Assembly: GCA_041288095.1 (NCBI GenBank) | Contig: JBGGMJ010000211.1 | Coordinates: forward strand, 63,725-127,724 | Direction of reading: 5' to 3' | Length of the DNA stretch: 64,000 nt | Source: Myxococcota bacterium | GTDB lineage: Bacteria; Myxococcota; XYA12-FULL-58-9; JALHOP01 | In this document: piece by piece, positions 5,397-47,975 of the stretch | How positions within the stretch are numbered: position 1 is the stretch's first letter | Layout of the letters: every line of letters begins with the position of its first letter | The notes under the pieces: model-generated | Told to the model about the DNA's origin: nothing | Databases searched by the model: none | Seen by the model: the letters and a program-made list of their open reading frames with translations, nothing else | Made by a program: the position numbers and the translations under genes

Positions 5397-5425
5397 GTTA
5401 TCGTGCGCGAGGCGGTCGGTGTTTC
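5397..5425 (-). promoter_or_regulatory. putative sigma28-like promoter (GAAAC-N16-ACGATAAC)
   Basis: Copy of a motif recurring five times in the window; 24 nt upstream of ATG 5372. Confidence 0.5.
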
Positions 5426-5442
5426 GCCCGAGCGCGCGGCTG

Positions 5443-5712
5443 TCAGGTGGAACGTTGGTCATCCCGGAGGGCGGCTTCGGCCAAGGCGCGGACGTCCTCC
5501 GTCAATCCGAGGTGGCGCGCGCCTCCCGAAAACGGGCACTTGCCGGACTTTCCGGTCGCCCCGCTGCCGCCGCTCTTGGCCGCCTCGGTGTGCGCCGCGA
5601 GGAAGGCCTCGAGGGTGATGCCGTCTGACAAAGTGGCAGCAACGGCCGCCGGTTGCGCGGGGGCCGGGCTGAGAACCGCTGCGTCACGAAGGGCTTCGAG
5701 CTTCACGTCCAT
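5443..5712 (-). CDS. hypothetical protein (89 aa)
   Basis: GGAGG SD before ATG; low-complexity Ala/Gly/Ser sequence with a KCPF motif. Confidence 0.55.
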   Translation of the reverse strand: MDVKLEALRDAAVLSPAPAQPAAVAATLSDGITLEAFLAAHTEAAKSGGSGATGKSGKCPFSGGARHLGLTEDVRALAEAALRDDQRST

Positions 5713-5734
5713 GCTACCTCCGGGGGAGGTAGAC

Positions 5735-5762
5735 GTTATCGGGACGTGGGTGGCGGCGTTGC
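5735..5762 (-). promoter_or_regulatory. putative sigma28-like promoter (GCAAC-N15-CCGATAAC)
   Basis: The -10 box resembles the FliA GCCGATAA box; 22 nt upstream of ATG 5712. Confidence 0.6.
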
Positions 5763-5788
5763 GCGGGCCGCGCCGCGAAGGCGCAGAC

Positions 5789-8401
5789 CTAGAAGAAGTT
5801 GCCGATGGTGAACTCGAAGATGAGGCTCCGGTCGGTGGGCCGCACCTTGGTGATCGGGATACCCCACTCGAAGCGCAGCGGACCGATCGGCGAGAGCCAG
5901 CGCAAGCCGAAGCCGAACGAGTAGTAGAGGCCGAGTGGCGGCTTGATCGGATCGGTGCTGTTGAAGAGGTACGCGTTCGGACGCAGGTCCTTCGGCGTGT
6001 CGAGATAGAAGAAGCCTTCGTTGTCGTCGTAAGCGTTGCCGGCGTCTGTGAAAAGGACGCCCTTGATGCCGGCGGCGGTGAGGATGGGGAACTCGAGCTC
6101 GAGATTGAACACGACCTCTTTGTTACCGCCGCGCACGAACTCGGTGGTCTCGCCGAGTGGCTCGCCCTTGTAGCCGACGTTGACGCGGGGCCCGAGCGAG
6201 CGTGGATTGAAGCCGCGGACCGAGTAGATGCCGCCCGGGAAGAAGCGCTCGGAGATCTGCACGCCCTGCTCGCCGTTCCCGGTGATGTAGCCGAACTGCC
6301 CGCGGAACTTGAGCGTGAAGTTCAACGGCAGCGGCACGTAGCGTTGGATGTTCAAGGTGTAGCGCTGGTACTCGAGGCCGGTGTCCGAGCCCCACGCCTT
6401 GTTCGAAACCTCGGTCGCGAGGATGTGGTAGTGGCCTGACCGCGGAAACAGACGGTTGTCGCGCGTGTCGTAGGCGATACTCGCGTTGAACGCCGAGTTC
6501 ATGCCGTTGTTGTTGAGGTTCTCGTAGTCAATCTGGCGGCCGCCGCCGACCTCGTCGATGTTGATCTGCTCGAGCGTATAACCGACGTTGACGCGCCAGT
6601 CGGGCGTGATCGGATAGCCGAGCGTCGGCGAGAAGCCGGTCGCCGAGCGCGCGAAGTCTTGGTAGAAGCGCTTGGTGATGTAGGCCTTGAAGCCGAGCTG
6701 CCAGCGCGTATCGAGGAAATACGGCTCGATGAAGTCGAAGGTCGCGAGCTGGCGCGCGAACGTACCGAACGAGAGCTGCGCCGACAGCGACAGAAGGTTG
6801 CCGTTCCCCAGGAAGTTGTTCTGGGAGATCTGCATCGTCGCGATGAACGATTCGACGCTCGAGAAGCCGGCGCCAATCTGGAACGTGCCGGTCGACTTCT
6901 CCTTGATCTCGACCTGGACGTTCATGGTGTCCGGGCGCGAGCCGCGATTGGTCGTGATCTCGACGGTCTCGAAGTAACCGAGCTGGTAGATGCGCGCCTT
7001 CGAGCGCGCGATGCCGGTGGCGCTGTACTTGTCGCCCTCGAAGATACGCATCTCGCGGCGCACGACCTTGTCGCGGGTCTTGGTGTTGCCGACGATGTCG
7101 ATGCGGTCGAAGTAGACGAGGTCGCCGCGCTGGACCTGCAGCTCGAGGTCGACCGTCCTGGTCTTGGGGTCCGTCCGCGTCAGCGGATTGACGTTGGTGT
7201 AAGCGTAGCCCTGGTCGCGATAGGCGTCGGTGACGGCTTGCAGGTCGGCGAAGAGCTTGGTGCGATTGAAGAGCTCGCCGCGCGCGATGGTGAGACGCTG
7301 GCGCAGCGAGCTCTCGCTGACCACGACCTTGCCGGCCTCGTCGGCGAGCTCGACGTCACCACTGAAGCTGATCTTGCCGATGTCGTATTGCTCGCCTTCG
7401 TCGATCGGCACCGACAAGTAGATGTAACGGCGGTCGGGCGAGATGGTCGCCGAGGGCTCGCCGACTTTCACCGACACGAAACCGTTGTCGTAATAGAGCG
7501 CCTGGATGCGGAACATGTCGGTCTCGAAGAACTCGCGCTTGTAAGTTCCCGCTTGCGACAAGAACGAGAGCTCGTTGCCCTCGCGCGTTTGCAGCACGGC
7601 CTTGATCTGGTCGTCGGGGATCTTCTTGTTGCCGACGAAGGCGATGTGCTTGACGATGACCTTGGCGTTCTCCTGGATCTCGAAGACGACGTTCACTTCG
7701 GCGTCGTCGCCGTCGATGGGCTCGATGCGATAGCGGACTTGCGCGAGGAAGTAGCCCTTCTCGACGTAGAGGTCCTTGATCTTCTCGACGTTGCGCTTGA
7801 GCTGGTCGGTGTTGAGGATGCTGTACGGTTTGACGTCGACGACCGGTTTCATGTCGTCTTCGCCCAGGTCATCGAGGCCGACGAACTTGACCTCTTGAAC
7901 GGCCGGCCGCTCCACGACCACGAACACCAGGCGCACGCCTCCGGTCGCCGGCTCGGTCTCGGCGCGCACGTCGCGGAAGAACGTCGTCCCCCAGATGGCA
8001 CGCAAGTCGGTGGTGACGACCGTCGGGTCGAGAGCGCTACCGGCGCGTGACTTCACGACCGCGAGCACCGCCTCGGGATCGACGCGGCGCACACCTTCGA
8101 CGCTCACATCGACGATACGGAGCTCGTCGGCATCGCCCTTCGGCGCCGGTGGGCGCTTGCCGCGCGTCGGAGTCGGCGCTGGTTGCGGCTGCGGTTGCGC
8201 TGGCGGGTTGACCTCGGTGGCCTCCCCTGGTCGCGGCGGGTAGTTCTTGATCGTCGAATCGGGGTCGGTCGTCGAAGGCGCGGGCTGCGTCGGCGACGCG
8301 GGCGCCCGTGAGGTCGACGGATCGCGGGCCGGCGGCGTCGCCTCCTGAGCGGCCACCGTCGCGGACCACGCGACGATGCATGCTACCGCAAGGAGTCTCA
8401 C
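5789..8401 (-). CDS. bamA: outer membrane protein assembly factor BamA
   Basis: Signal peptide, POTRA repeats ([13 protein letters not shown]), SVRGF loop 6, [14 protein letters not shown]-terminal FEFTIGNFF. Confidence 0.97.
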
Positions 8402-9090
8402 GCCCGCTCCTCGACCAGTCCGTCGTGCAACACCAGGCGGCGCGACATACGGTCCGCGAGACCACGGTTGTGCGTGACGACGATGAGCGTGATGCCGCGG
8501 GTCGCGTTCAGGCGGAAGAGCAGCTCGTGGATCTCTTCGCCGGTCTTCTCGTCGAGGTTGCCGGTCACCTCGTCCGCCAAGAGCAGCGGCGGGTCGAGCA
8601 CCAAAGCGCGCGCCAGAGCGACGCGTTGCTGCTCGCCACCCGACAGCTCGCCAGGGCGATGCTCGACGCGGGCAGCGAGCCCAACGTCGGTCAAGGCGCG
8701 CATGGCTCGCTCGCGGGCCTCGTCGCGCGACTGACGGCGGATGAGCGCCGGCATCATGACGTTTTCGAGGGCGCTGAACTCGGGCAACAGGTGGTGGAAC
8801 TGGAAGACGAAGCCGAGCTCGCGGTTGCGGAAGTCGGCGAGCTCCGACGGCGACAAAGCGGTGAGATCCCGTCCGTCATAGTGGATGGTGCCGCTGTCCG
8901 GGAGGTCGAGGGTGCCGAGGGTGTGCAGGAGCGTGCTCTTCCCCGCCCCCGACGCGCCGATGATCGAGACGACTTCGCCCTTCCTGATGACGAGCGACGC
9001 GCCACGCAGCACGTCGATGACGGCGCCGCCCTTGCGATAGCGTTTGTTCAAGGCCCGCGCTTCCAAAAGCACGGAGGAGCTATCCGTCAC
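8398..9090 (-). CDS. lolD: lipoprotein-releasing ABC transporter ATP-binding protein
   Basis: [37 protein letters not shown]; lies between lolC/E and bamA. Confidence 0.93.
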
Positions 9091-12453: not shown

Positions 12454-14103
12454 ATGTGCTTGCGCACCGTGGCTCTGGCCACGACCATGGCCTTCCTCGC
12501 CACCGGCACCGCTGCCGAGGTTGCCGCCTCTCCCGAGCGCGTGGCGGTGGCGGGAAAGCGCGCTCCATCCAAGAAGGCCAAGGCCTCGAGCAAACGTCCA
12601 CCACCTCCCGAGCCGGAGCTCGAGGCACCGGCGCTCGAAGAGCCACCGAAGCCCGCAAGCGCCGCAACTCCAGTCGCGTCGCAGGGGCCGCCGACGCTCT
12701 CCACCAAGTACCGAGCGGTGGCCATTCTGCCCTTCGATACATCGGACGTTGGTGAGTCGCTCATCCGCTCGATCGAACAGGCCCTCATCAACGAGATCGA
12801 GGACAAAGGCGGGTTTCGCGCCGTGTCGCCGCGCGACGTCGTGAGCGAAGCGGCTTCCTACGACATGAGCCCGGGCAAGTGCGCGAACGAAGATGTTGCC
12901 TGCTGGGCTCAGGTGGCCCGTCACGCCCGCGCCCACCTCGCGATCGTCACGCGCGTCGCCGCCCTCGGCGGCGTGCTCAACTTGTCGCTCCGCCTGCTCG
13001 ATGCGCAGACCGGCAGCGAGGTCGGCCGCGTCGCCGAGGCTCTGTCCGAGAAAACGGACGAGCGCGCCGCCCAGATGCATCGGATGGCCGTGCAGTTGTT
13101 CACGCCGGCGGAGTACGTCGGCACGCTCATCGTCAAAAGCGACGAAGCCGGCGCCGACATCTACCTGAACGACAAGCTCGTCGGCACCACCCCGCTCAAG
13201 GCGCCGCTCAAGAGCTTGCCGGCGGGTCCCTACATCTTGCACGTCACCAAGGAAGGCTTCGCCGACGTCTACCAGTTCGTCGACGTCGCCTATAACCGCG
13301 TCTCGACCATCACGGTGAGCCTCGCCACCAACACCATTTCGGGCGCCATCGCTTTCGGCTCCGACACGGGCTTCGGCAGCGTGTACGTCATTTCGGACTT
13401 GCCCGAGGTCGAGGTGCGTATCGACGGCGAGCCCAAAGGCATGACGCCGCTCGAAGGCGCGATCTCGCAAGTCCCTGCCGGCAGCCGGCGCTTGTCTCTG
13501 CGTCGTGGCAACGCCGCGCCGCTGGTGCGCGAGCTCAAGGTCGAGAAAGGAAAGCGCACCGACGTCGGCGTCAGCGTGGGCCCGGACGGCACCCTCACGG
13601 CGGTGGTCATGGTGAGCTCCTTGGACAGCCCCTTGCCGGTCGACCCAGGCCTGTCGACGCCGGTCGCGGGCGTCAAGGCAGCCGGGCCCACCGCCGAAGC
13701 CAGCCATCCAGTCTTCACGAGCGGACTCGTGGTTGCCGGCGTGGGTGTGGTGGCGCTCGGCATCGGCGGCGTATTCGCGAGTCAAGTGCGCTCCGCCAAC
13801 AACGCGGCCAAGGACTACGAGCGCACCATTCGTGAAAGTGACGACCCCGTGGAGCGCAACGAGGCGCGCGAGGATCTCGCCCAGCTCAACGAGGACGGTC
13901 CGGGCAAGGAGCGCAATCAGTGGATCGCGCTCGGCATCGGAGGGGGCTTGTTGCTCACCGGGGGCCTGCTCATGGCGGCGGATCATTGGCACTGGTTCGG
14001 CATCGGCGCGCAGAGCGCCGGCCGCGACCGGGACGATGGGCTCCGTATCGGGGTGATGCCGGGCCCTGGCGGCGGAATGGTGAGCATCGCGACACCGTGG
14101 TAG
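12454..14103 (+). CDS. PEGA-domain exported protein
   Basis: Signal peptide, Pro-rich linker, two PEGA repeats (GADIYLNDKLVGTTPL; VEVRIDGEPKGMTPL), C-terminal glycine-rich hydrophobic hairpin. Confidence 0.85.
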   Translation: MCLRTVALATTMAFLATGTAAEVAASPERVAVAGKRAPSKKAKASSKRPPPPEPELEAPALEEPPKPASAATPVASQGPPTLSTKYRAVAILPFDTSDVGESLIRSIEQALINEIEDKGGFRAVSPRDVVSEAASYDMSPGKCANEDVACWAQVARHARAHLAIVTRVAALGGVLNLSLRLLDAQTGSEVGRVAEALSEKTDERAAQMHRMAVQLFTPAEYVGTLIVKSDEAGADIYLNDKLVGTTPLKAPLKSLPAGPYILHVTKEGFADVYQFVDVAYNRVSTITVSLATNTISGAIAFGSDTGFGSVYVISDLPEVEVRIDGEPKGMTPLEGAISQVPAGSRRLSLRRGNAAPLVRELKVEKGKRTDVGVSVGPDGTLTAVVMVSSLDSPLPVDPGLSTPVAGVKAAGPTAEASHPVFTSGLVVAGVGVVALGIGGVFASQVRSANNAAKDYERTIRESDDPVERNEAREDLAQLNEDGPGKERNQWIALGIGGGLLLTGGLLMAADHWHWFGIGAQSAGRDRDDGLRIGVMPGPGGGMVSIATPW

Positions 14104-19752: not shown

Positions 19753-22365
19753 TCAACCGCTCTGCGCGACTCGGTCGGCGATAGTCTTGGCGAACTGGTG
19801 CACGTTCGCCATCGTGCTCATCGAGAGGACCTCATTGGCGTAGAAAATCCCGCCCTCGCCTTGGAGGTTTCGGGCGCGCTCGAAGAACTTCTCCATGCGC
19901 ATGGCGTCGCCGTCGACATGAGGGAAGAACTTCCAGCGTCGGGCTTCGACGAGCTCGACCGAGGTAGCTCCGAGCTTCTCCATGTCGCCACGGATCTTGG
20001 CTACGACATCGGCGTCGCTGAGCTGCTCCGGCGCAAAGAGGTGGAAGATGCAGAGGTCGTCGTCGGGGTAGCGCTTGATCCACGCCATCGGGTGACCGGC
20101 GCGGTCCTCGCGCATGTTTTCGCGCAGGTACCCGACTTCGGCGCGCCCGTCGGCAACGCCCCGCACGCGGCAGGCGAAGGTGCTGTACGGCATGTGCTTG
20201 ACCAGGCCGAAGAGCTGCTGCTGTTCGGGTGGCGCGTCGATGAATTCGAGCGACTGCTTGAGGTCGCAAGCGACGACGACGCGATCGAAGTGTTGCTTGC
20301 CGGCGGCGGTGTGCACGATGGCGGTGCCGTCATCGCGCGACTCCAGGCGCCGCACCGGGGTCGACAGCTTGACGTCGAGGTCCTTGGCGACGCCTTCCCA
20401 GATGGGAGTCGTGCCGTGCTTCCACATGAGGAGCTCGCCGCTGCCGGCGCCGACGATGGTCTGCGGCCCGAGCATGCGCATGCCGAACACCGACGGTGTG
20501 TCGCCGGGGAAACCGTAGCCGTAACCAGTCAGATAGGTATCGAGCGCCGGCGCGAAGGCTTCGAAACCCTGGCGTGAGGCTACGATGCCGAGCGGCTCGG
20601 CGAGGTCTTCGTGGGGCACTTCGAGGCCGTCGCCGGCCTGATTACGAGCCTTGAAGTTCGTGACCATGTAGCGCAGCGCGCCGGCGTAGAACGCGGCCGT
20701 CTCCGAGAACGTGCGCGGTGGTCGGGCTTTGCCGGTCGAGAGGTCGTACTGCACCTGCTGCGGAAAGCTCGTGGTGTGCACGCCGTGCTCTAGGCCCAGC
20801 GCCACGATCCCGTCGTACATGCGTGGCACGCCCATGGTTGCGCCCATGTCGTGCTCGCGTCCGTTGAAGCGGACGGTGAAGCTCTTGCCTCCGACGCGGT
20901 CGTCGGCCTCGAGAACCGTGACGTTGGCGTAGCCCTGGCTGCGCAGATCGTGCGCAACCGAGAGGCCCGAAGGACCGGCGCCGACCACGCAGATCGCTGC
21001 GTTCTTCGCGAGCGGCTCGTCGCGTGGGGGTCGTGGCTTCGCGGCGGCATCGACCGCCTGGGTGTGCGCCTCGACCTCGTCGACACAGGCGCGGATCGCC
21101 GCCACCTGCTCGGGCGTCGCACGCAGGGCGTCGAGCTTGGCGCGGCTCGGCATCTCGCGCACCGGCTTGACGCTCGCGTCCGGTCCGCCTTTGCGGAAAA
21201 CGAACTGGTCGACGTTCATGTGTCCGCTGCGGAAGCCACCGGCGATGCCCAGCAGATACATGTCCTGCATGCGCTTGAATCGGTCGTTGTAGCGCTCGCC
21301 GCGCAGCTCGGGCCAGGCGGCTTCGAAGTTCGCATGCCAGGCGAGCAACGTCTTGTCGTAGCTGTCGGTGATGCGCTGTACGTCCTCGGCCGCCCCGAAC
21401 CAGTCCGCCGCCGCGGTGTCGATCTGCTCGCGCGAGGGACACAGACCGTCGCGGAAGATGTACTCGCCCATCCAGGCGTTGCAGCGCACCTTGCTCTTGG
21501 GCTCGAGGATGGCTTGCAGAGCGAAGCTGCCGCCGGGCTTCAGGCACGCCTGGGCGCATTCGAAGTAGCCGCGGAAGTTCTTGGGACCGACCGCTTCGAT
21601 CATCTCGATGGAGACCACGTGATCGAAGTGGTCCTTGGGGAAGCGCTTCGCGAGGTCGCGATAGTCGCTGTAGATGAACGACACGCCGCCGATGTCCTTC
21701 GAGAGCGCGCGGGCGAGCTTGAGCTGCTCGTTCGAGATGGTGATGCCGACGACCTCGGCGCCGTAGTGCTTGGCGGCGTAGCGGGCAAAGCCGCCGAAGC
21801 CGCAGCCGATGTCGAGGACGCGGTCACCGGGCTTCAACCCCATCTTACGACACAAGAGATCGTGCTTGGCGTTCTGCGCGTCCTCGAGGGTGTAGCCGTC
21901 GGCATAGACGCCGCTGGTGTACGCCAGGGTCGGCCCGAGCATGCGCGCGTAGAGGGGGTTGCCAACGTCGTAGTGTTCCTTGGCGACGTTGGTCGAGCGC
22001 GTGATGGTCTGGCGGTTGAAGAAGATGGCGAGGGCGTCGCGGTAGAGGTGGCGTGCCGCGGCCTCGGCGAGGAGCAACGGCGTCCGCGTGATCACGTCGG
22101 CCGTGAACAGGCGCTCCTTGGCCTTGATGGCGGTGAGCCGCGCGGTCAGCTCGTCGAGCGACTTACAGTCCCAGAGGCCGTCCATGTATGTGACGCCGAG
22201 CTGCATGTCCGGGTCACGGAGGACCCGGGCGTAGAAGCTCGGGTCGTGGACGGTGACGTCCTGAGGTGCGTTGCCGCCGATGCGGACGCCGGCAGCGGCC
22301 AGGAGCTCGGTGACGGTGCGTTGTGCGGGCGAAATAGCGCCCTTACCGACGTGTCCGTTGCTCAT
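19753..22365 (-). CDS. fusion: cyclopropane-fatty-acyl-phospholipid synthase-like SAM methyltransferase plus FAD-dependent PUFA-isomerase-like domain
   Basis: N-half: HYDVGN, LEDAQ, VLDIGCGFGG, GITISNEQ, EMIEAVG, YDKTL. C-half: VVGAGPSG, RVGGKS, MGATMGVP, GYG, W..GT, WKFFPHV, QG..FYANE. Confidence 0.85.
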   Translation of the reverse strand: MSNGHVGKGAISPAQRTVTELLAAAGVRIGGNAPQDVTVHDPSFYARVLRDPDMQLGVTYMDGLWDCKSLDELTARLTAIKAKERLFTADVITRTPLLLAEAAARHLYRDALAIFFNRQTITRSTNVAKEHYDVGNPLYARMLGPTLAYTSGVYADGYTLEDAQNAKHDLLCRKMGLKPGDRVLDIGCGFGGFARYAAKHYGAEVVGITISNEQLKLARALSKDIGGVSFIYSDYRDLAKRFPKDHFDHVVSIEMIEAVGPKNFRGYFECAQACLKPGGSFALQAILEPKSKVRCNAWMGEYIFRDGLCPSREQIDTAAADWFGAAEDVQRITDSYDKTLLAWHANFEAAWPELRGERYNDRFKRMQDMYLLGIAGGFRSGHMNVDQFVFRKGGPDASVKPVREMPSRAKLDALRATPEQVAAIRACVDEVEAHTQAVDAAAKPRPPRDEPLAKNAAICVVGAGPSGLSVAHDLRSQGYANVTVLEADDRVGGKSFTVRFNGREHDMGATMGVPRMYDGIVALGLEHGVHTTSFPQQVQYDLSTGKARPPRTFSETAAFYAGALRYMVTNFKARNQAGDGLEVPHEDLAEPLGIVASRQGFEAFAPALDTYLTGYGYGFPGDTPSVFGMRMLGPQTIVGAGSGELLMWKHGTTPIWEGVAKDLDVKLSTPVRRLESRDDGTAIVHTAAGKQHFDRVVVACDLKQSLEFIDAPPEQQQLFGLVKHMPYSTFACRVRGVADGRAEVGYLRENMREDRAGHPMAWIKRYPDDDLCIFHLFAPEQLSDADVVAKIRGDMEKLGATSVELVEARRWKFFPHVDGDAMRMEKFFERARNLQGEGGIFYANEVLSMSTMANVHQFAKTIADRVAQSG

Positions 22366-22373: not shown

Positions 22374-22402
22374 TTTTTCGGCAACCCACCCGCCGGCGGT
22401 GC
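22374..22402 (-). promoter_or_regulatory. putative sigma28-like promoter (GCACC-N16-CCGAAAAA) for the cfa fusion
   Basis: Recurring motif immediately upstream of ATG 22365. Confidence 0.5.
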
Positions 22403-22413: not shown

Positions 22414-22442
22414 GCACCGCCGCGTACCTTTTGGCCGATAAA
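22414..22442 (+). promoter_or_regulatory. putative sigma28-like promoter (GCACC-N16-CCGATAAA) for the desaturase
   Basis: Contains an exact GCCGATAA at 22434-22441. Confidence 0.6.
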
Positions 22443-23356
22443 TGGTCGTCTTGGTCGCTATCGAGCGAAATTCCCCCGTTCAGACCGCCGGATCGCCGCC
22501 GCCAGGGCCCGAAAGCGCCATTCTGGCACCGACCAAGGCCGCGCCCGCCGCGCTCCCTGATCTGCCCAAGCGCCCGGAATCGTGGGGCCCGTTCCTCTAC
22601 AAGGAGGACCGTCTGCCCACCGCCGTGGTCGCGGCGGGGGTCGCCCTATCGCTCGCGCCCTTCCTGGTGCCGATGAGCGCCGGGACCATCGCCTGTCTCC
22701 TGCCGGTCGCTCTGGCGGCGCGGGTCATGGCCCCGGTGCATCAGCACCACCACGCCCACCTCAAGGTCTTCACCAACCGCTGGCTCAACAAGCTCTACGA
22801 CACCGTGCTCATGCTCGGCGGCGGTAACGTCACGACCGGATGGGAGATGCAGCACTGCCGCGGCCATCACACCCAGTATCTCGACCACGAGAAGGACGTC
22901 GCCGGGTCCATGCGCTTCACGAAGAGTGGTCCGTTCCGGCGGATCATCTACACGGTGCTGGGTGATGCGAGCTCGCTGCGCGATGCCTGGAAGATCGCCG
23001 GCCAGAGCCGCGACCCCGGCAAAGTCCGCCGCCGGCTCGCCGGCGAGGTCGCCCTGCAGGTCGCGGTGAACGGTGCGCTGCTCGCCATCAATCCGCCCCT
23101 GGCGCTTGCGACCATCATCCTGCCCAACGTGCTCCTGCGCTGGATGGTCTTCTGGAAGTCATTCGACCAGCACGACGCCGCGCCGGGCAACGATGTTTAC
23201 GACGGCTCGGTGAACGTCTCGGGGCGCATCCAGGAGCTCTTCCTGAACGTCGGCCACCACACGGCGCATCACAAGAAGCCGACACTCCACTGGTCACGGC
23301 TGCCGGAGCTGACCGACCAGATCAAAGACAAGATCCCCACGGTGCTCATGCGCTAG
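22442..23356 (+). CDS. membrane fatty acid desaturase family protein
   Basis: Three His boxes (HQHHH, HCRGHH, HHTAHH) with hydrophobic segments; start may be TTG at 22451. Confidence 0.88.
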   Translation: MVVLVAIERNSPVQTAGSPPPGPESAILAPTKAAPAALPDLPKRPESWGPFLYKEDRLPTAVVAAGVALSLAPFLVPMSAGTIACLLPVALAARVMAPVHQHHHAHLKVFTNRWLNKLYDTVLMLGGGNVTTGWEMQHCRGHHTQYLDHEKDVAGSMRFTKSGPFRRIIYTVLGDASSLRDAWKIAGQSRDPGKVRRRLAGEVALQVAVNGALLAINPPLALATIILPNVLLRWMVFWKSFDQHDAAPGNDVYDGSVNVSGRIQELFLNVGHHTAHHKKPTLHWSRLPELTDQIKDKIPTVLMR

Positions 23357-31167: not shown

Positions 31168-31177
31168 TGGTGCGACC

Positions 31178-31783
31178 TTGAACCCAGAAGGTCTCGACCT
31201 CAATCGGTACGCTCCTGTCGCGAGCGCCCCGCCACCGGCGAGCGTCGGCTGGGTCGTGGCGGCAATCGTCCTGTTCGTGCTGTTCATCGCGCTATCAGCG
31301 ACATTGGCGGCGCGCTGGCTGCCGTCCGCTATCGAAGACGACGCCCTGCTCCCACGCGCGTCGCGTCCGGTGCGACTGCTCGTGCTCGTTACCTTGGTCG
31401 CGCTCCTCGGGGTCCAAGCGCTCGGGGCCATCGACGTCTTCGTCCAGACGCGCATCGTCTACGACGACGCCGGGGCCTACTTCGCGCACCTGTCGCTGGG
31501 ACGTCTCGTCGGCACCAGCCATGCGCACCTATTCGGCTACGCCTTGCTCTACGGCATGGTGGCGCTCTTTGCCTGCATGAGCGCCGCGCCGCCGGCGTGG
31601 AAGCGCTGGCTGGTGGCGGCGTTGTGCTGGGCTGGCCCGTTCGACATCGCGTCGTGGTGGGGCATGAAGTATCTCACCGCGCGCTTCGAGCTGCTGTCGC
31701 ATGCCACCGCGCTGGCGAGCGTCGGCGCTAGTCTCGCGACTCTGCTGCTCGTCGCATCCGCCGTTCGCAAGGCGCCCGCGTGA
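31178..31783 (+). CDS. multi-pass membrane protein with SHAHLFG motif
   Basis: About 5 hydrophobic segments; His pair could ligate heme or metal. Confidence 0.65.
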   Translation: MNPEGLDLNRYAPVASAPPPASVGWVVAAIVLFVLFIALSATLAARWLPSAIEDDALLPRASRPVRLLVLVTLVALLGVQALGAIDVFVQTRIVYDDAGAYFAHLSLGRLVGTSHAHLFGYALLYGMVALFACMSAAPPAWKRWLVAALCWAGPFDIASWWGMKYLTARFELLSHATALASVGASLATLLLVASAVRKAPA

Positions 31784-34437
31784 GCCGACAAACCACCAGC
31801 ATTCGGCGGCGCCTGTTGCTCGCCGTTCTGCCGGTGATGACGGTGGCTCTGCTCGCGGCGCTGCTCGTCGCCACCGCCACCGCGCGGCGCGGCCTGTCAT
31901 CGCTTTCGGATACGAACCTGACGCTCACCGCCGAAAGCCTGGCTGACGCCATCGGCCAGACCGTCGCGGACGCTTTGGCGGACACGGTGACCGCGGCGCG
32001 GCTCGATCTCGCTGCCGAAGCCGTCGAGACCGGTGACCCGAAGAACTTCGACTGGTACGCCGACGAGCTGGTGCTGGGGAAACGCAAGTACTCGGGGCTC
32101 GCGGTCGCCGACAACGCCGGCAAGGCGGTCGCGGCGAACGCCATCGACCGCACGGGCAAGCCCCTGACGCAGCTCATTCGCGGCGGCGTCCTCGAGGCCG
32201 CGGTGGTCGGCCGGCTCGCGGGCGCGGGCAAAGACGCCTCGGCGGCGTTCGGCCCCGGCGAGGCAAGCGCGTTCGCCGGCGGGCGCAGCGTCGGCTTCGT
32301 CGCGCCGGTGTTCGATATCGTCGACGAGCGCATCGGCACCGTGGTGCTCGGGCTCGCGCTCGACTACTTCGCGGCGCGGCTGGCCGCGGCGAGCGTGGTC
32401 AGCTCGAGCCGCGTGGATTCGCTCGCGGTGATCGTCGACGGCCAGGGCAGTCCGCTCGTTTGGCCGGAAGGTATCGCGGCGGAGGGCTGGCGGACGGGTG
32501 GCGAGAGCTGGCGCGCAGCCGATGGCTCGCTCTATCGGGCGGTGAGCCGCCCCGTCCCCCCGCCGGCGGACCGCTTCGGCTGGTCGATCGTCGCGCTCAA
32601 GACCGATGCGGCGCTCGCCGCGCCGGTGAACGCCATCACCAACCGTATCCTGCTCGGCACCGGCATCTCGCTGCTCGCCGCGCTGGCGCTGCTCATGTTC
32701 ACCACCACGCGCATCGTCGAACCACTACGGCGGCTCACCCGCGCCGTCACCACCACCGAACGGGCCGGCGGCTTCGTCGCGTTACCGGTCGAGACGAACG
32801 ACGAGACAGGCGCGTTGACGGCATCGGTGAACGCCATGATGGACACGATCCGATCCTACGAGAGCGACCTCGAGGCCAAAGTGCGCGCCCGCACCGCCGA
32901 GCTCGCCGCCGCCAAGCGTGAGCTCACCGACATCTTCGACAACATGGAGCAAGCCATCTTCACGGTGAACGCCGAGGGGACGGTAAACGCCCAGTACTCC
33001 GCGGCGTCGCGACGCATCTTCGGTCACGAAGACATCGCCAAGCGGCCGGCGCACGAGCTGCTGCAGTTCGCGGCGCCCTGGAACGGCGCCGACGAACGCA
33101 TGCGGCTTTGGCTCGCCAGCATCATCGGTGCCGATGACCTTCAGTGGACGCTGGCCGCCGAGGACCCGCCCTCACGCGTCCGCTATCGCAAGCAGGACGA
33201 CGAGACGCCGCGCAACGTCATCGATCTGCAGTATGTGCCCATTTACGACGCCGGCGCGGTGGCCAAGGTGATGATCATCGCCACCGACGTGACCCGCGTC
33301 GTCGACCTCGAGCACGAGCTGCGCGCGCAGGCCGAAGAGAACCGACTGACCGTGGAGCGCGTCAGCGAGATCATCAGCATCGACCCGCGGCTATTCACTA
33401 CCTTCATGAACGAGGCGCGGGCGCTGACCGACGATGCCCAGACGAAGTTGGATGCGATTGGCGGGGGCGACGAGGCGGCGCTGCGCGAGCTGTTCCGCGC
33501 CATGCATACGCTCAAGGGTAACGCGCGTATCTTCCGCCTCACCAGCATCCAGAATGCCGCGCACGCCGTCGAAGACGAGCTCGACATCATGCGGGCGGGC
33601 AAGGCAAGCCAGGAGGCGCTGCCGCGCTTGCGCGAGAGTGTCGCGACGCTCACCAAGCTGGTCACGGAGTTCGAGAGACTCGCGACGCGCGTTGTCGGCA
33701 CCCAGGGCGCCGGTGACGCCGTGGGGCAAGCCGTGGTGCGTGTGCGCGAGGCTCACGTGCTCGCGCTGCGCCGCGCCTTCAAGGATCTGCGCGAGCGGCT
33801 GCGCGCGACTGGCGGCGAAGGGGAAGCGCTGGCGCCGCTCGGCGAAGCCATCGTCGCTCTCGGCCGCGTACCTTTCGGCAGCGTCATTGCGCGCTATCAA
33901 CGCGAGGTGCTCGACATCGCCCGCGAGCAGCAGAAACGCGTCCACGAGGTCGCGGTCATCGGCGAGGCTGTCGAGGTGGATGGACGCCTGGCGGACAAGC
34001 TCGGCATCGTTCTCATGCACGTCCTGCGCAACGCCATCGATCACGGCATCGAAGCGCCGGACCAGCGAGCGGCCGCCGGCAAGACGGCTCAGGGCACCAT
34101 CAAGGTCGAGCTCGTCGTGACCGGCGACACGCTGCGGCTCAGCGTCACCGACGATGGCGGCGGCATCGACTACGCTCACGTACGCGATCTCGCATACGAG
34201 CGCGGCCTGCTCGGCGAAGACGCCATCGCGGACGATGCGGCGCTCACCGAGCTGCTCTTCACGCCCGGCTTCTCGACCGCCCGCGTCGTCACCGCCATCT
34301 CGGGTCGCGGCGTCGGCCTGGACGTGGTACGCACAGCGGTGCGAGACCTTCGGGGCGAAGTCCACATGACGTCGCGGCGCGGGCAAGGCGCGACGATCGA
34401 GGTCCACCTGCCGTTACGCGACCAAGAGGCGATTTGA
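31780..34437 (+). CDS. transmembrane CheA-like histidine kinase: periplasmic Cache-like, HAMP, PAS, HPt, HATPase; no CheW domain
   Basis: Two TMs, HAMP (NDETGALTASVNAM), HPt LFRAMHTLKGNA, HVLRNAIDHGIE, DDGGGID, FTPGFST, SGRGVGLD; protein ends right after the ATPase. Confidence 0.88.
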   Translation: MSRQTTSIRRRLLLAVLPVMTVALLAALLVATATARRGLSSLSDTNLTLTAESLADAIGQTVADALADTVTAARLDLAAEAVETGDPKNFDWYADELVLGKRKYSGLAVADNAGKAVAANAIDRTGKPLTQLIRGGVLEAAVVGRLAGAGKDASAAFGPGEASAFAGGRSVGFVAPVFDIVDERIGTVVLGLALDYFAARLAAASVVSSSRVDSLAVIVDGQGSPLVWPEGIAAEGWRTGGESWRAADGSLYRAVSRPVPPPADRFGWSIVALKTDAALAAPVNAITNRILLGTGISLLAALALLMFTTTRIVEPLRRLTRAVTTTERAGGFVALPVETNDETGALTASVNAMMDTIRSYESDLEAKVRARTAELAAAKRELTDIFDNMEQAIFTVNAEGTVNAQYSAASRRIFGHEDIAKRPAHELLQFAAPWNGADERMRLWLASIIGADDLQWTLAAEDPPSRVRYRKQDDETPRNVIDLQYVPIYDAGAVAKVMIIATDVTRVVDLEHELRAQAEENRLTVERVSEIISIDPRLFTTFMNEARALTDDAQTKLDAIGGGDEAALRELFRAMHTLKGNARIFRLTSIQNAAHAVEDELDIMRAGKASQEALPRLRESVATLTKLVTEFERLATRVVGTQGAGDAVGQAVVRVREAHVLALRRAFKDLRERLRATGGEGEALAPLGEAIVALGRVPFGSVIARYQREVLDIAREQQKRVHEVAVIGEAVEVDGRLADKLGIVLMHVLRNAIDHGIEAPDQRAAAGKTAQGTIKVELVVTGDTLRLSVTDDGGGIDYAHVRDLAYERGLLGEDAIADDAALTELLFTPGFSTARVVTAISGRGVGLDVVRTAVRDLRGEVHMTSRRGQGATIEVHLPLRDQEAI

Positions 34438-34438
34438 C

Positions 34439-34924
34439 GTGAGCGGTCCGCCGAAGCTGTTGGGTCTCGCCGCGCTGCTGTGCGCCGTCGTCTCGCCGAG
34501 TCGCGCTCGTGCTGAGCTCAAGACCCTCGGCGTCGGCGACAAGATGGCCATGGTGCGCGACCAGTTTCCGCCGGAGCAGCAGGCCCGCTACGATGTCTTC
34601 AAGGTGCGCTGCACCAAATGCCACGCCATGGCGCGCCCCATCGCCGCCTTGCGCACCGGTACTTCGCCCGTGACCGGCGGCGTGTTCGACCAGGACACCT
34701 TGAAGAAGTACGTCGTGAAGATGATGCGCAAACCCAACTCGGGCATCGCCAAGGACGAGGCACGCGAGATCCTCACCTTCCTCTCGTTCGCGTTGACGCT
34801 CACTGAAGACGAGCGGGCCCACATGCCGCCACAGCTGCCCCCATCCGAATCGGCGGAACCCCCAGCAAGCGAGCAGCGTGCCAGTGATTCTCCGACACCA
34901 TCGCCAGAGCCGGCCCCGCACTGA
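34439..34924 (+). CDS. periplasmic monoheme cytochrome c
   Basis: Signal peptide ending ARA, CTKCH, distal Met region KMMRK. Confidence 0.8.
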   Translation: MSGPPKLLGLAALLCAVVSPSRARAELKTLGVGDKMAMVRDQFPPEQQARYDVFKVRCTKCHAMARPIAALRTGTSPVTGGVFDQDTLKKYVVKMMRKPNSGIAKDEAREILTFLSFALTLTEDERAHMPPQLPPSESAEPPASEQRASDSPTPSPEPAPH

Positions 34925-34961
34925 AGTCTGCTATGATGAAGCCCGAGGTAGTCGCTTGATC

Positions 34962-35846
34962 GTGAAGAAGTACCTCCTCATCTTCGTTGGCTCGGGCCGC
35001 GACGAGCTCCTCCATCTGACACCGCATTTGAAGGCGTTGAACTTCGAAGTCGGTTGGATCGCGCAAAGCGAGCAAGCCAGGGAGGTACTCTCAAGCGCGG
35101 ATTGCCTCTCGCTGGTGCTCATCGATGCGACCGACACGGCCGAGACCGAGCGCGGCGTCGTTAGCTTCATTCGCGAGCGGCAACCGCGGCTCCCGATCAT
35201 CTGGATCCAGCGCAAGGGCGCGGTACCGATCTTCAGTGGTCCTCCTCCCGACGTGATCTTGCAGGGCCATGTCGAGCCGGATGTCCTGACCGCTGTAGCG
35301 GCCACGCTGCTGCGCGAGCGCTTCTACACGCGCGGCCTCGTCGACGACCTGGTGGCGAGCGTCGTCGGCATCGGTCGCGAGAGCTTCGGCACCGAGCTCA
35401 CCCCGGCGGATCCAGTGCTGAAGTCGACCACCGAACAGATCTCGGGTCTGTCTACCCTGCTCTACTTCGCCGGCAGCGGTGTAGCCGGGCACGTCATCGC
35501 TGGTGCCGCGCCCGAGTACCTCATCACCCTGCACCAGCGTTTGCTGCCGAACATCGCGAAGCCCACTCTCGAACAGCTCGCGGATCTTCTGGGCGAGCTC
35601 GCAAACCAAGTCGTCGGCCGCCTCCGCTCGCAGCACGGGCTGGTCTTCGATGTCGGCGCACCCCTGCTCGTGCGCGGTGCCAATGTCGTCGTGCGCCAGG
35701 TCGCCGGCAGCCCGGCGCTGCTCGTCTCGTTCCACGATGGTCCGTCGCGCATCGACATCGAGCTGTGCCTGCACCGCTTCGATGAGCGATTGACAGTGCG
35801 GCAAGTCACCTCGTCGCTACCCCCCGGCGAGCTCGTTTTCTTGTGA
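34962..35846 (+). CDS. degenerate receiver plus CheX-like phosphatase (second copy)
   Basis: LSLVLID; ADLLGELANQVVG CheX motif; TGcTATGAT extended -10 upstream. Confidence 0.7.
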   Translation: MKKYLLIFVGSGRDELLHLTPHLKALNFEVGWIAQSEQAREVLSSADCLSLVLIDATDTAETERGVVSFIRERQPRLPIIWIQRKGAVPIFSGPPPDVILQGHVEPDVLTAVAATLLRERFYTRGLVDDLVASVVGIGRESFGTELTPADPVLKSTTEQISGLSTLLYFAGSGVAGHVIAGAAPEYLITLHQRLLPNIAKPTLEQLADLLGELANQVVGRLRSQHGLVFDVGAPLLVRGANVVVRQVAGSPALLVSFHDGPSRIDIELCLHRFDERLTVRQVTSSLPPGELVFL

Positions 35847-36292
35847 GGAAGCTCGGCACGCTGTCGCTCACCGTAGCGCTTTGGCTCGGCACGACCGCCG
35901 GCAAGTGTGTCGGTTACGATGAACGCTTGGTGCCCCCGACGGCGCTGCCGGGGGGTGATGGCGGTGCCGTGGTCAGCGCGACGCCCTGCCCAGACCCGAG
36001 CGAAGCGATCCTCGCGGTCGAGGAGTTCGCATTCATCGTCCGGTGCGGCTGCCTCGAGCCGCCGGGCGTCTACACCGAAGACGACAAGCACTGCACCATT
36101 CCCGTTGGGACCACCGTGACCTGGATGTTCCAGGGCAGCCAGCAGCACAATGTCGCGAGTGAAGCCTTCGCCGACTCGCGGCCGCGCACCACCGGCCGAT
36201 ATTCGGTGCCGTTCGATACACCGGGCGTCTACGACTACTCGTGCTCGTTGCACATCGGGCAAATGAGCGGCTACTCGATCATCGTCCGCTAA
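35843..36292 (+). CDS. plastocyanin-like blue copper protein
   Basis: VGTTVTW, HNV, FDTPGVYDYSCSLH...M (C-x2-H-x3-M). Confidence 0.85.
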   Translation: MRKLGTLSLTVALWLGTTAGKCVGYDERLVPPTALPGGDGGAVVSATPCPDPSEAILAVEEFAFIVRCGCLEPPGVYTEDDKHCTIPVGTTVTWMFQGSQQHNVASEAFADSRPRTTGRYSVPFDTPGVYDYSCSLHIGQMSGYSIIVR

Positions 36293-36297
36293 AGCGA

Positions 36298-40625: not shown

Positions 40626-41852
40626 TCAGTAGAGCGGGCGCAATAGCTCGTAACGACCGTCGCGCGTCGCGTAGAAGTAAGGCTGTTTCCACGGGAAGCG
40701 GATGTCGTTCGACTTGAGCAAGCCGGCATCGACGAGGACCGCGAGCTCCTTGGGATAGTCGCCGGCCTCGGCGCGGTAGACCGCGAGGGCGCGCTCGATC
40801 TTCTGCATCTGCGTCGCCGAGACCACCGACTGCACGTCTTGCGCGACGTAGCCGGTGGATTCACGCAGCGAGACCCAGCCGCGCAAACGCAAGCCGTAGG
40901 TGCGCTGGCCGACCATGAAGAGGACGACGAGCCCGGCCGCCACCGCGGCGACCTTGAGCATCAGCGGCGCGACACCACCGACCCGACGCGCGGCGATGCC
41001 ACCACCGAGCGGCGCCGCCGCCTGCACCGCGCGCTGTTGACGCGTGTCGGCCACTGTCTCGGTCTCGATGATGCCGGCGCTGATGAGTGCCGCCAGCGCT
41101 TTGCAGGTCTCGAACTCGCCGAGGCGCGACAGATCGATGATCTTCTGCACGTCGCGGCCCGGAACGATGAGCTGATAGACCGTGCGCTCCTTGCGGCCGA
41201 TGTCCTTCAGGCGGCCGGTGCGCTCGCTCGACTGGCCGGACTCGAACTCCGCGAAAGCGTCATCGAAGTCGAGCTCCGCGTCAGCCTGCCCTTTTTCACC
41301 CGCGTCGAGCTTCTCGAGATCCTCGAGCTTGTGGAAGGTGATGGCGTAACCGGGGATCGACTTGCGGATGAGCGGCCACTCGTCGACCTGACGGAAGCCC
41401 TCCATGAGGACCGTCTCGCTGCGGATTGGCTCGACGTCCGTCGGCAAGCCGATCTCGGTCTGGTTGAACTCGTAGGTGCCGCTGGTCCACAGGAAGAGCT
41501 GATAGAGCGTCTCGTTGAGCTGCAGCTTGACGAACATCGCCAGGCTCGGAGGCTCGACCAGGCCCGAGTTGATGAGCACGTCACCCAGTCGGTCGCCGCT
41601 CTTCTTCTGGATGTCCAGCGCTTGGCCGAGCTGCTCGTGGGTAATGACCTCGGCGCGCACCAACAGGCCGCCCAGCATGTCGCGCTCGCGGCGCGTCGTC
41701 GAATGGGCGCTGACGACGTGGCCATCGCGGAAGCCAATCTTCACTTCGCGTCCGCGCTCGCGGACGATGAGAAAGCCGGTCTTTCCCTGGTGGCCGATGA
41801 GCTGGAAGATGTCGGCGATGCCGAAATCGCGGAGTGTGCCTCGCAGGGCCAT
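40626..41852 (-). CDS. DUF4388 domain protein with C-terminal TM and GspG-like tail
   Basis: MALRGTLRDFGIADIFQLI...KTG, LGGLLV, LMEGFRQVDEW; tail ALAVYRAEAGDYP..L..LV. Confidence 0.8.
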   Translation of the reverse strand: MALRGTLRDFGIADIFQLIGHQGKTGFLIVRERGREVKIGFRDGHVVSAHSTTRRERDMLGGLLVRAEVITHEQLGQALDIQKKSGDRLGDVLINSGLVEPPSLAMFVKLQLNETLYQLFLWTSGTYEFNQTEIGLPTDVEPIRSETVLMEGFRQVDEWPLIRKSIPGYAITFHKLEDLEKLDAGEKGQADAELDFDDAFAEFESGQSSERTGRLKDIGRKERTVYQLIVPGRDVQKIIDLSRLGEFETCKALAALISAGIIETETVADTRQQRAVQAAAPLGGGIAARRVGGVAPLMLKVAAVAAGLVVLFMVGQRTYGLRLRGWVSLRESTGYVAQDVQSVVSATQMQKIERALAVYRAEAGDYPKELAVLVDAGLLKSNDIRFPWKQPYFYATRDGRYELLRPLY

Positions 41853-47065: not shown

Positions 47066-47095
47066 TTGACAGTCGCGCCCACCGTTTGGTAGACG
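47066..47095 (+). promoter_or_regulatory. sigma70-type promoter for rpsT
   Basis: TTGACA-N18-TAGACG. Confidence 0.5.
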
Positions 47096-47156
47096 CCCGC
47101 CCCTCGTAAGATGCCGAAAGCCCTGTGGGCTAACCCGGCCGTTTGGAGTCGAGATC

Positions 47157-47420
47157 GTGGCAACGCATAAGTCTGCAGAGAAGCGCGCGCGTCAGTCGGT
47201 GAAGCGGGCGGCCCGTAACGTCAGCCGTCGTAGCAAGGTGCGCGGCGCCATCCGGGCTTTTCGCGAGGTTCTGACCGCCGGTGACAAGAAGAAGGCCGAG
47301 AAGGCCCTCGCCGAAGCGACCCGCGAGATCCGCAAGGCCGCTTCGAAGGGCGTCGTTCACGCCCGTAACGCCAGCCGTCGCGTTTCGCGCATGGTGCTGG
47401 CGTTCAACAAGCTCGGCTAA
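47157..47420 (+). CDS. rpsT: 30S ribosomal protein S20
   Basis: MATHKSAEKRARQS...KGVVHARNASRRVSR. Confidence 0.96.
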   Translation: MATHKSAEKRARQSVKRAARNVSRRSKVRGAIRAFREVLTAGDKKKAEKALAEATREIRKAASKGVVHARNASRRVSRMVLAFNKLG

Positions 47421-47437
47421 CAACGCCGCAAGCGTCG

Positions 47438-47465
47438 AGGGCGCCGCGGCCTACGCTGGCGCCCT
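47438..47465 (+). terminator. probable rpsT terminator
   Basis: AGGGCGCC/GGCGCCCT stem followed by ATTCGTTTCTT. Confidence 0.45.
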
Positions 47466-47493
47466 ATTCGTTTCTTCAGAGAGCCCGAATGAG

Positions 47494-47898
47494 CTAGGGC
47501 TTCTGCTTGGGCTCTTCCGACACCACGTCAGCCAGGGCTAGCAACGCCGTCCCGACGTTGCCATGGGCCTCCGCGTGCGACGCCAAGACGCCCGCGAGGT
47601 GAGCGCTAAATCGCTCGGCAGCGCCAGGTCCGTCGGTCACGACGATGTAATTGGCGAAGCGTGGGCCGACCTTGCCAGCGTCGAGGCTACGGAGGTGCGC
47701 CAGGGCTGCCTCCATCCCCGCGTTCGTGTCGGTTCCGTCTGACTGTGGAGCGGCGGCGGCAAGCGCGGCGCGAAGCATCTTGGCGGTGAATGGTACGTGG
47801 ACCGCCTTGCCCTCCTCGAAGCCCAGGAGTGGTGCGTTGGGCTCATCCATCGAGCGAACGTCGAACATGGTGCGATTGAGCGGTGGGGTCGTCGTCAT
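47494..47898 (-). CDS. hypothetical protein (weak vWA-like fragment motifs)
   Basis: GGAG SD before ATG 47898; T...GMEAAL and IVVTDG resemble the vWA C-terminal half. Confidence 0.5.
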   Translation of the reverse strand: MTTTPPLNRTMFDVRSMDEPNAPLLGFEEGKAVHVPFTAKMLRAALAAAAPQSDGTDTNAGMEAALAHLRSLDAGKVGPRFANYIVVTDGPGAAERFSAHLAGVLASHAEAHGNVGTALLALADVVSEEPKQKP

Positions 47899-47947
47899 TG
47901 GTCTTCTCCAGACGCGAATTCCCGGCATTGTCGCGTCGTCTGTGACC

Positions 47948-47975
47948 AGTATCGGCCCATACACGTCCGCGTTGC
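47948..47975 (-). promoter_or_regulatory. putative sigma28-like promoter (GCAAC-N15-CCGATACT)
   Basis: Recurring motif, about 50 nt upstream of ATG 47898. Confidence 0.55.

Follow-up and report, generated by a model that had tools for sequence, protein, structure and literature searches.

The stretch of DNA analysed here (the window) covers 64,000 nt of contig JBGGMJ010000211.1 and carries five copies of a two-box motif that resembles the promoters of sigma-28 factors. The copies stand before genes for two lipid enzymes and three small proteins, and their relation to a sigma factor, here named sigma2, and to the needle-less type III secretion system of myxobacteria (T3SS*) is the subject of this study. 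The host assembly, G000, belongs to a soil myxobacterium (Myxococcota) and comprises 5.85 Mb in 212 contigs, with 66% GC and a completeness of about 90%; its genes were called with a purpose-made codon-usage caller (5081 genes, 93% coding, about 7% intergenic). Among the numbered relatives used for comparison, G001, G002 and G003 are genomes of the same genus (sister genomes), and G029 is a 9-Mb Myxococcus-like genome from another family. All five sites listed in a preliminary description of the window read back exactly in coordinates, boxes and spacers, and each is intergenic, correctly oriented and close to a start codon, as that description held (Table 1). Scores are those of a position weight matrix (PWM) refined on intergenic matches (542 sites) and reported from a threshold of at least 16.

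Table 1. Predicted promoters, their target genes and the sigma factor loci. Positions without a contig prefix refer to the window; those with a prefix refer to G000.
Feature	Position	Strand	Score or family	Remarks
Promoter GAAAC-N16-ACGATAAC	5397..5425	-	PWM 18.5	26 nt before ATG at 5372
93-aa target protein	5091..5372	-		orthologue present in G001
Promoter GCAAC-N15-CCGATAAC	5735..5762	-	PWM 24.3	intergenic; CCGATA ends 24 nt before ATG at 5712
89-aa orphan target gene	5443..5712	-	no Pfam family	own gene call; no signal peptide
Promoter GCACC-N16-CCGAAAAA	22374..22402	-	PWM 19.5	10 nt before ATG at 22365
870-aa fusion of a cyclopropane-fatty-acid-synthase-like domain (CMAS) and a flavin amine oxidase	19753..22365	-	Pfam PF02353 + PF01593	
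Promoter GCACC-N16-CCGATAAA	22414..22442	+	PWM 19.3	divergent from the promoter at 22374..22402; boxes kept in G002
Fatty-acid desaturase target	22442..23356	+	Pfam PF00487 (FA_desaturase), residues 85-300	called ATG 1 nt after CCGATA
Promoter GCAAC-N15-CCGATACT	47948..47975	-	PWM 24.3	51 nt before ATG at 47898
134-aa orphan target	47494..47898	-	no Pfam family	own gene call; no signal peptide
sigma2, 293 aa	C92:35188-36072		FliA_WhiG, 163.7 bits (best NCBIfam)	best PDB relatives are FliA chains
sigma1, 270 aa	C127:21759-22571		FliA_WhiG, 166.1 bits (best family)	
Motif before apparatus operon	C92:24293		score 20.2	operon starts sctI-like, sctJ, FliG-like and runs towards sctL, sctN, sctQRST
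Motif before sigma2 operon	C92:38060		score 19.3	
Motif before sctV	C31:5776		score 19.1	384 nt before sctV

Within the window, the loose consensus G[CA]A[AC]C-N15,16-[AC]CGA[AT]A has six matches, namely the five sites and one intragenic antisense match at 13391-13417, against 0.67 +/- 0.85 (maximum 4) in 200 dinucleotide-preserving shuffles of the same DNA. At a PWM score of at least 16, the five sites are the only intergenic matches, and two intragenic ones (8117 and 44662, both on the + strand) score 16-17. No site at this threshold precedes the window's seven housekeeping genes lysS, prfB, rpsT, rpsA, mutS, murJ and bamA, in agreement with the preliminary remark that such genes lack the motif.

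The sister genomes retain the boxes of several of these sites. Both boxes of the promoter at 5397..5425 are kept in G001, where the spacer has diverged, and those at 22374..22402 are kept in G002 with 6 spacer bases changed. An mRNA starting from the latter promoter would have almost no leader; the CMAS/amine-oxidase fusion downstream of it has two paralogues elsewhere in G000, both of them motif targets. The ATG assigned to the desaturase (22442) shares bases with the -10 box and is AGA in G002, so that the true start probably lies downstream; the FA_desaturase domain does not begin until residue 85. The name "HhH protein" given to the 93-aa protein also falls away, since no Pfam family matches it at E<=0.01.

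The 89-aa gene is absent at its locus in G001, where a 360-nt stretch is swapped for 57 nt, and the 134-aa gene was not found at its locus in the three same-genus genomes, whose matches stop short of it; the stretch holding its promoter is retained in G002, not in G001 or G003. With two of them missing at their loci in sister genomes, the window's orphan targets turn over quickly. The stretch after bamA (window 5373-5790) itself differs among the sisters: in place of the 89-aa orphan, G001 has 57 nt and G002 about 2 kb of other DNA.

The five sites are members of a predicted genome-wide promoter class, cGCAAC-N15/16-GCCGATAA. The strict form used for counting in G000, GCA[AC]C-N15,16-CCGATA, has 142 copies: 105 intergenic and facing a start within 120 nt, 21 elsewhere in intergenic DNA, 16 coding sense and 0 coding antisense. 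With the narrower GCAAC-N15,16-CCGATA there are 117 copies against 4 for the reversed-pattern control. The genome-wide scan proposed in the preliminary description finds 396 intergenic matches at a PWM score of at least 16 and 129 in the coding DNA, which is 13 times as long; the intergenic density is about 40-fold higher, and the coding matches imply that roughly 10 intergenic ones would be expected by chance; as the PWM was trained on intergenic matches this contrast is partly circular, whereas the strict count and the reversed-pattern control are not. Within 200 nt of a start lie 348 of 393 PWM sites, facing 347 genes, and the distance from box to start codon is most often 30-40 nt. The five copies first reported therefore greatly understate the scale, which is about 400 promoters genome-wide in a class conserved across an order. 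In a motif-blind test of 3145 upstream regions, no hexamers show a stronger strand asymmetry than CGATAA and CCGATA.

The architecture of the class resembles that of a sigma-28 promoter with a different upstream box. Across the 542 PWM sites, the -10 box counts are G 309, C 337, C 530, G 542, A 542, T 418, A 468 and A 296, with CGA invariant, and the spacer is 15 nt at 359 sites and 16 nt at 168. The extended -10 box GCCGATAA that typifies sigma-28 promoters is present, and matches the consensus given in the available text of PMC12784957. The -35 consensus is cGCAAC rather than the canonical TAAA(G); TAAA-N14-16-CCGATA occurs once in G000, as a coding antisense match. No sequence information is found outside the two boxes. 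Purines occupy 92 of 141 expected start positions, these being predicted at about 8 nt after the -10 box.

Conservation across relatives was assessed by counting the strict GCAAC-N15,16-CCGATA in 40 genomes, each with its reversed-pattern control. The three same-genus genomes hold 91-143 copies (control 2-3), and 18 further genomes of the same order hold 1-60 (control 1-9), 14 of the 18 having at least 17. Two genomes of one other family have 45 and 15 copies (control 4 and 2), and the 17 other genomes of the phylum have 0-14 (control 0-3). Overall, the motif is abundant across the order and at background level in the rest of the phylum. Orthologous promoters of sister genomes were compared in 9 pairs, from 7 of 12 tested sites: identical bases occupy 45 of 45 positions in the -35 box, 58 of 63 in the -10 box and 97 of 141 in the spacer, with 72-79% identity in the flanks.

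G000 encodes RpoD, two RpoD-like factors, RpoH, about 28 sigma factors of extracytoplasmic function (ECF) size and two factors, sigma1 and sigma2, whose best match is FliA/WhiG. The preliminary description had predicted an alternative factor of sigma-28 kind with an altered -35 preference and had proposed a search for fliA/whiG; the boxes (gCCGATAa and cGCAAC), the two FliA/WhiG-like genes, one with a changed -35-reading helix, and the many targets without a Pfam family (65 of 82 sampled) all bear this out. In an ungapped alignment to 9wsm_F, the sigma2 equivalents of D66, Y76, R82 and R97 of Pseudomonas aeruginosa sigma-28 are D117, F127, R133 and R148. The available text of PMC12784957 assigns -10 and extended -10 reading to these residues of the P. 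aeruginosa factor and a base-specific -35 contact to Q228. Region 4.2 of sigma2 reads KSWTSRLH against the canonical ESRVSQLH, which contains S224 and Q228: the S is kept, Q228 is replaced by R and the R by W. All 22 aligned family members share the helix SKSWTSRLH unchanged; among nine readable orthologues it is identical in four of five from motif-rich genomes, reads SKSWVSRLH in G006 and keeps the SKSW core in four distant ones. With an altered -35-reading helix to match an altered -35 box, and with the -10-reading residues kept, sigma2 is the most likely reader of the motif.

The distribution of sigma2 follows that of the motif. All 20 of the 40 relatives with at least 15 strict copies have a sigma2 orthologue of at least 63% identity; the 18 genomes that lack one all stay below 15 copies. 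G005, with 60 copies and no sigma2 match, was considered as a counter-example and set aside: a contig end cuts its sigma2 after 17 aligned residues, and the motif precedes its operon. In G000, G029, G030, G037 and G040, the strand that encodes sigma2 carries a strong motif 1.5-2.0 kb upstream of the gene; in G025 the distance is 0.7 kb. The motif precedes the sigma2 operon in six families, including some genomes with just 5-9 strict copies in all. The presence of sigma1 or of sigma3, introduced below, does not track the motif across genomes.

The other FliA-like factors keep the canonical helix type ESRVxQL, which in sigma1 and its relatives in G005, G006 and G012 takes the form DSRVCQLH. Sigma3 is a third, canonical FliA of the same-genus genomes, located inside a flagellar cluster with flagellins and a second FlhA (FHIPEP). 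In G001 this cluster (C2:510001-530000) has two flagellins, FlhA and the canonical FliA, and the whole of it is missing from the G000 assembly. The G001 flagellin promoter is canonical, CTAAAG-N15-GGCGATGA, and the GCAAC class is therefore a separate one. No flagellin or rod genes were found in G000, but a non-flagellate organism was rejected as the explanation, given that same-genus genomes carry the cluster and the assembly is about 90% complete; the genus, judged by its gene content, is probably flagellated and also has the T3SS*. M. xanthus SigF was likewise rejected as the sigma2 orthologue, being a different gene (MXAN_0785).

Two observations concern possible regulators of these factors. 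An 80-aa FlgM-like gene (PF04316, 31.3 bits against a cut-off of 25) follows sigma1, not sigma2; the pair (C127:21759-22805) has a non-flagellar context of a DEAD helicase, a phytase-like gene and a glycosyltransferase, and close sigma1 orthologues were found in this genus and G005 only. Just upstream of sigma2, C92:36185-36661 encodes a conserved protein of 157 aa, disordered at its N-terminus and helical at its C-terminus, which is present in 21 relatives and has no Pfam family; it takes the place of MXAN_2436. By position and shape this protein is a candidate secretion-coupled anti-sigma factor.

The genomic setting of sigma2 links it to the T3SS*. In G029, genes on one strand follow the order: motif (score 23.4), a 191-aa gene, an LcrH-like tetratricopeptide repeat (TPR) gene, a 131-aa gene, sigma2, sctI-like, sctJ, a 732-aa gene, sctL, YscO-like, FliK-like, sctQ (FliM/N), FliO, sctR, sctS, sctT and sctU, then three tandem 73-aa paralogues amid four motifs (scores 17-25), a 156-aa gene, a TPR gene and sctV. 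The cluster thus holds five PWM motif sites, one before the sigma2 operon and four more. Gene order and lengths around sigma2 match those of MXAN_2434-2442 in the M. xanthus T3SS* cluster (mxan_2434-2464), as listed in the supplementary tables of PMC9548883, and sigma2 sits at the place of MXAN_2437, directly upstream of the sctI-like gene and sctJ. The G000 operon is orthologous; its first gene shows 36% identity, its TPR gene 38% and its sigma2 gene 45%. It differs in lying about 11 kb from the sctI-like gene and sctJ on the same contig (C92), the interval holding efflux genes among others. The sigma gene is encoded with sct genes, and the motif stands before apparatus genes as well as before the sigma operon.

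According to the available text of PMC10433427, PMC12075869 and PMC10849154, the T3SS* lacks a secretin, a needle and a translocon, is needed for prey lysis and has unknown effectors; these reviews of myxobacterial predation, in the portions available, name no regulator for it. The T3SS* is described in the accessible part of PMC3459982 as the earliest-branching non-flagellar type III system and as a proposed intermediate between flagellum and injectisome. In the accessible literature searched, we found no paper describing the motif or a T3SS* sigma factor. The name "MXAN_2437" was not found in any main text searched, and the gene is annotated just as a "sigma-70 family" factor. The probable identity of the sigma factor and the secretion system are additions to what the preliminary description inferred.

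The first gene of the sigma2 operon (G000 C92:37386-37943; G029 L114:9899-11028; the position of MXAN_2434) has a conserved C-terminal domain of about 60 aa (...SNIMKTKHDTAKNAINNVR). This domain occurs in 1514 cluster representatives, some only 68-90 aa long, and T3SS_needle_F is found on 11% of one Atlas neighbour cluster (0.90). The gene and the 73-aa tandem genes of G029 could encode axial or needle-like subunits of this "needle-less" system. Searches of Pfam and NCBIfam returned nothing to indicate a needle-like nature, and a profile of the C-terminal domain matched no solved needle protein, its best match (E = 2.3) being unrelated. The AlphaFold model is one long helix with a predicted local distance difference test (pLDDT) score of 71, too plain for a fold search.

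The targets form a scattered set of accessory and orphan genes, as the preliminary description proposed. In a Pfam sample of 82 of the 347 targets, taken from the windows densest in targets and searched at E<=1e-6 (neighbours at 1e-5 and 1e-4), 65 have no family, compared with 18 of 46 and 15 of 39 non-target neighbours. Among the 17 with an annotation are seven peptidases (S8, M14, two S9, S41, M20 and C26), a serpin, a beta-lactamase fold and an SLT_2 transglycosylase; several of them have long polar N-terminal extensions. Only 42 of the 347 have a paralogue among the targets. The expected shortage of signal peptides holds as well: by a crude hydropathy test, signal-peptide-like N-termini occur in 7% of 341 targets against 25% of 4672 other proteins. 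For the more speculative suggestion of the preliminary description, that targets may leave the cell by a non-Sec route, this shortage and the place of the likely cognate sigma gene in the T3SS* gene set offer real though indirect support. A hydrophobic N-terminal segment is found in 10% of the 341 against 31% of 2260 other first-in-unit genes, and the gap persists over the first 150 residues. In the first 25 residues of targets, P (1.5x), Q (1.4x), S and T are over-represented, and L, K, D, E, F, Y and C under-represented.

A similar, smaller set is found in G029, where GCAAC-N15,16-NCGATAA has 13 copies (control 1), four in the T3SS* cluster and nine dispersed. Of the dispersed copies, six stand before orphans and one before a secretin-like gene whose start is uncertain; the other two precede genes for cell-wall hydrolases, LysM+SLT and PG_binding_1+CHAP, both without a signal peptide. 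In G000, small TPR genes similar to LcrH/SycD lie within two genes of a target in four of five cases, against a background of 27%. At C10:79858-83033, three top-scoring orphan targets (66, 402 and 207 aa) flank a 198-aa gene whose best match is LcrH/SycD (82 bits; cut-off 105), a layout that resembles translocator-chaperone modules.

Computation shows the motif to be enriched, conserved and linked to sigma2 and the T3SS*. Judged from sequence comparison, the promoter class is probably read by sigma2 and tied to the T3SS*. In this model, RNA polymerase carrying sigma2, a member of the MXAN_2437 family, would read the class, and the motif before its own operon would provide positive feedback. 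Sigma2 would drive the T3SS* structural operon and sctV. In the window's genus the motif also stands before about 340 scattered genes; most are orphans that turn over fast and lack Sec signals, and peptidases and cell-wall hydrolases are among the rest. By analogy with the late flagellar proteins under sigma-28 or with HrpL effectors, many of the targets would be exported. A sigma-28 paralogue may have been kept when the T3SS* split from the flagellum and may have changed its -35 specificity. It is possible, and we propose it tentatively, that the motif is a genome-readable tag of T3SS* exports, with a retained sigma-28 paralogue of shifted -35 specificity driving apparatus and substrates alike. 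Similarly tentative, and argued by analogy, is the proposal that many of the targets are T3SS* substrates.

Several points weigh against this reading. The promoters are predictions, and genes, starts, signal peptides and intergenic classes all derive from crude purpose-made callers. The Pfam sample is biased by its choice of windows and by unequal cut-offs. Five of the 12 tested promoters have no alignable counterpart in the sister genomes, and since related genomes are not independent, the phyletic association overstates the support and is suggestive rather than statistical. Sigma2 falls short of the curated cut-off for FliA_WhiG, TIGR02479 (163.7 against 189.6 bits), as does sigma1, and the matching of residues to bases is inferred from the Pseudomonas structure. 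Among the 32 sigma genes assigned to gene calls (of 36 Sigma70_r2 hits), none has a motif within 200 nt; autoregulation of sigma2 would require read-through of three genes with gaps of 113-178 nt. Sigma1, the paralogue paired with FlgM, is also present in the five genomes with the most motif copies and may therefore share or add to the regulon. Finally, some targets are plainly not secreted, including the membrane desaturase, the fusion with a cyclopropane-fatty-acid-synthase domain and metabolic enzymes; with lipid enzymes among the window's targets, "effector" cannot apply to all of them.

The nature of the targets also admits a different interpretation, which we regard as possible if somewhat doubtful. 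The class and sigma2 would be as described, but the regulon would be a stress, developmental or lifestyle programme of cytoplasmic proteins, and the co-location with the T3SS* would mean co-regulation only. Targets such as the desaturase, the CMAS/amine-oxidase fusions, an aminotransferase, an adenosine deaminase, PNP and the M20 peptidase suit such a programme, and cytoplasmic proteins are equally expected to lack signal peptides. Chlamydial sigma-28 runs a developmental regulon. WhiG does the same, according to the available text of PMC12871210. Export is favoured by the SLT_2 transglycosylase, the S8, M14 and S41 peptidases, the serpin and the beta-lactamase-fold protein, which have long polar N-terminal extensions instead of signal peptides, and by the G029 hydrolases (LysM-SLT and PG_binding-CHAP) that lack them, because cell-wall enzymes must leave the cytoplasm. 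The LcrH-like chaperone genes beside targets point the same way, as does the requirement of the M. xanthus T3SS*, with its unknown effectors, for prey lysis (PMC10433427, PMC12075869, in their available portions).

It is unlikely that sigma1 reads the motif wholly or in part, with the large regulon representing a sigma1 expansion gated by FlgM. Sigma1 does have FliA_WhiG as its best family (166 bits) and an adjacent FlgM that passes the Pfam cut-off, its close orthologues occur only in G001-G003 and G005, which have the highest strict motif counts (60-143), and both paralogues are expected to read a -10 box like GCCGATAA. However, the motif-rich G004, G009, G010 and G015 (19-42 copies) have no sigma1-like match at E<=1e-20. 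The canonical DSRVCQLH helix predicts a TAAA -35 box, which G000 combines with CCGATA just once, and no motif lies near sigma1. Two promoter subclasses, one per sigma paralogue, were sought and rejected, as -35 variant, spacer and -10 variant are uncorrelated.

Recognition by an ECF (group 4) sigma factor is very improbable. GCAAC-N16-CGA, with AAC at -35 and CGA at -10, resembles ECF consensus forms, and the roughly 28 ECF-size genes of G000 offer candidates. ECF factors are usually autoregulated, but simple autoregulation of this style was dropped with none of the 32 sigma genes preceded by the motif within 200 nt. The -10 element is moreover the full 8-nt sigma-28 box, and across genomes the motif goes with sigma2, whose operon it precedes. 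That the many intergenic copies are not promoters at all, but a dispersed repeat or a transcription-factor site, is the least probable reading and scarcely credible, given two short boxes at a fixed 15/16 nt with unconserved spacer and flanks, a strict orientation towards the gene that follows (none of the 142 strict copies is coding antisense), and box spacing and box-to-start distances that appear to fit sigma-28 geometry.

Other features of the window and its genome lie outside this class. The sigma-54 -24/-12 hexamers (TGGCAC, CTTGCT, TTGCTA and TGCTAG) are also among the most strand-biased upstream words in G000, which suggests a large sigma-54 regulon. An unannotated gene block at window 28254-36292 adjoins a CheA-like kinase (Hpt, HATPase, HAMP) and a CheX-like protein and, with a DUF4388 protein at 40626-41852, forms a chemosensory-type module. 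At 49407-51520, an MbnP-like gene adjoins a di-haem MauG/CCP peroxidase gene, a pairing often linked to copper handling.

Of the known systems, the class 3 flagellar regulon of sigma-28 (FliA) and FlgM in E. coli, Salmonella and P. aeruginosa shares with the sigma2 class the GCCGATAA -10 box, apparently the box spacing, and a group-3 sigma factor of FliA/WhiG kind in which D66, R82 and R97 are retained and Y76 has become F, still aromatic. Flagellar sigma-28 drives proteins exported through a type III export gate, and the same is proposed, by analogy, for the sigma2 regulon. In contrast, the -35 box here is cGCAAC instead of TAAA, with Q228 changed to R; sigma2 is tied to a non-flagellar T3SS* and has no FlgM gene beside it; and some 350 genes are involved rather than a few dozen. 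Even within the T3SS* lineage the size differs, from about 13 sites in G029 to about 390 in G000.

HrpL of Pseudomonas syringae and Erwinia is encoded with a type III secretion system and drives both the apparatus and scattered effectors, and its hrp box (GGAACC-N15/16-CCACNNA) has been used for genome-wide effector finding. The likeness to sigma2 lies in a secretion-linked alternative sigma factor with a two-box promoter; HrpL, however, is an ECF factor that reads another box, whereas sigma2 is a sigma-28 paralogue. Sigma-28 of Chlamydia has, like WhiG, been re-used outside flagellar motility, and WhiG keeps the canonical TAAA -35 box. To our knowledge, neither is known to control secretion-system substrates at such a scale. 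WhiG of Streptomyces is controlled by RsiG and c-di-GMP, and its role as a sigma-28-family factor outside motility is covered in the available text of PMC12871210 and PMC8325347.

If this reading is correct, T3SS* substrates would become listable from sequence in any myxobacterial genome, including that of M. xanthus. Given a dedicated sigma factor and a promoter that can be recognised, the questions of T3SS* regulator and effectors would become directly testable. In G029, about nine dispersed genes would be tagged in this way, among them two cell-wall hydrolases without signal peptides that would fit the unexplained T3SS*-dependent prey lysis. The regulon of about 350 genes in the window's genus would rank among the largest effector repertoires proposed for any bacterium. 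The findings also add a regulatory link to the proposal, set out in the accessible part of PMC3459982, of a flagellum-injectisome intermediate, and would provide a clean natural case of promoter and sigma factor co-evolution after duplication. For the annotation of uncultured Myxococcota, the motif would group a large share of otherwise uninterpretable orphans into one co-regulated set.

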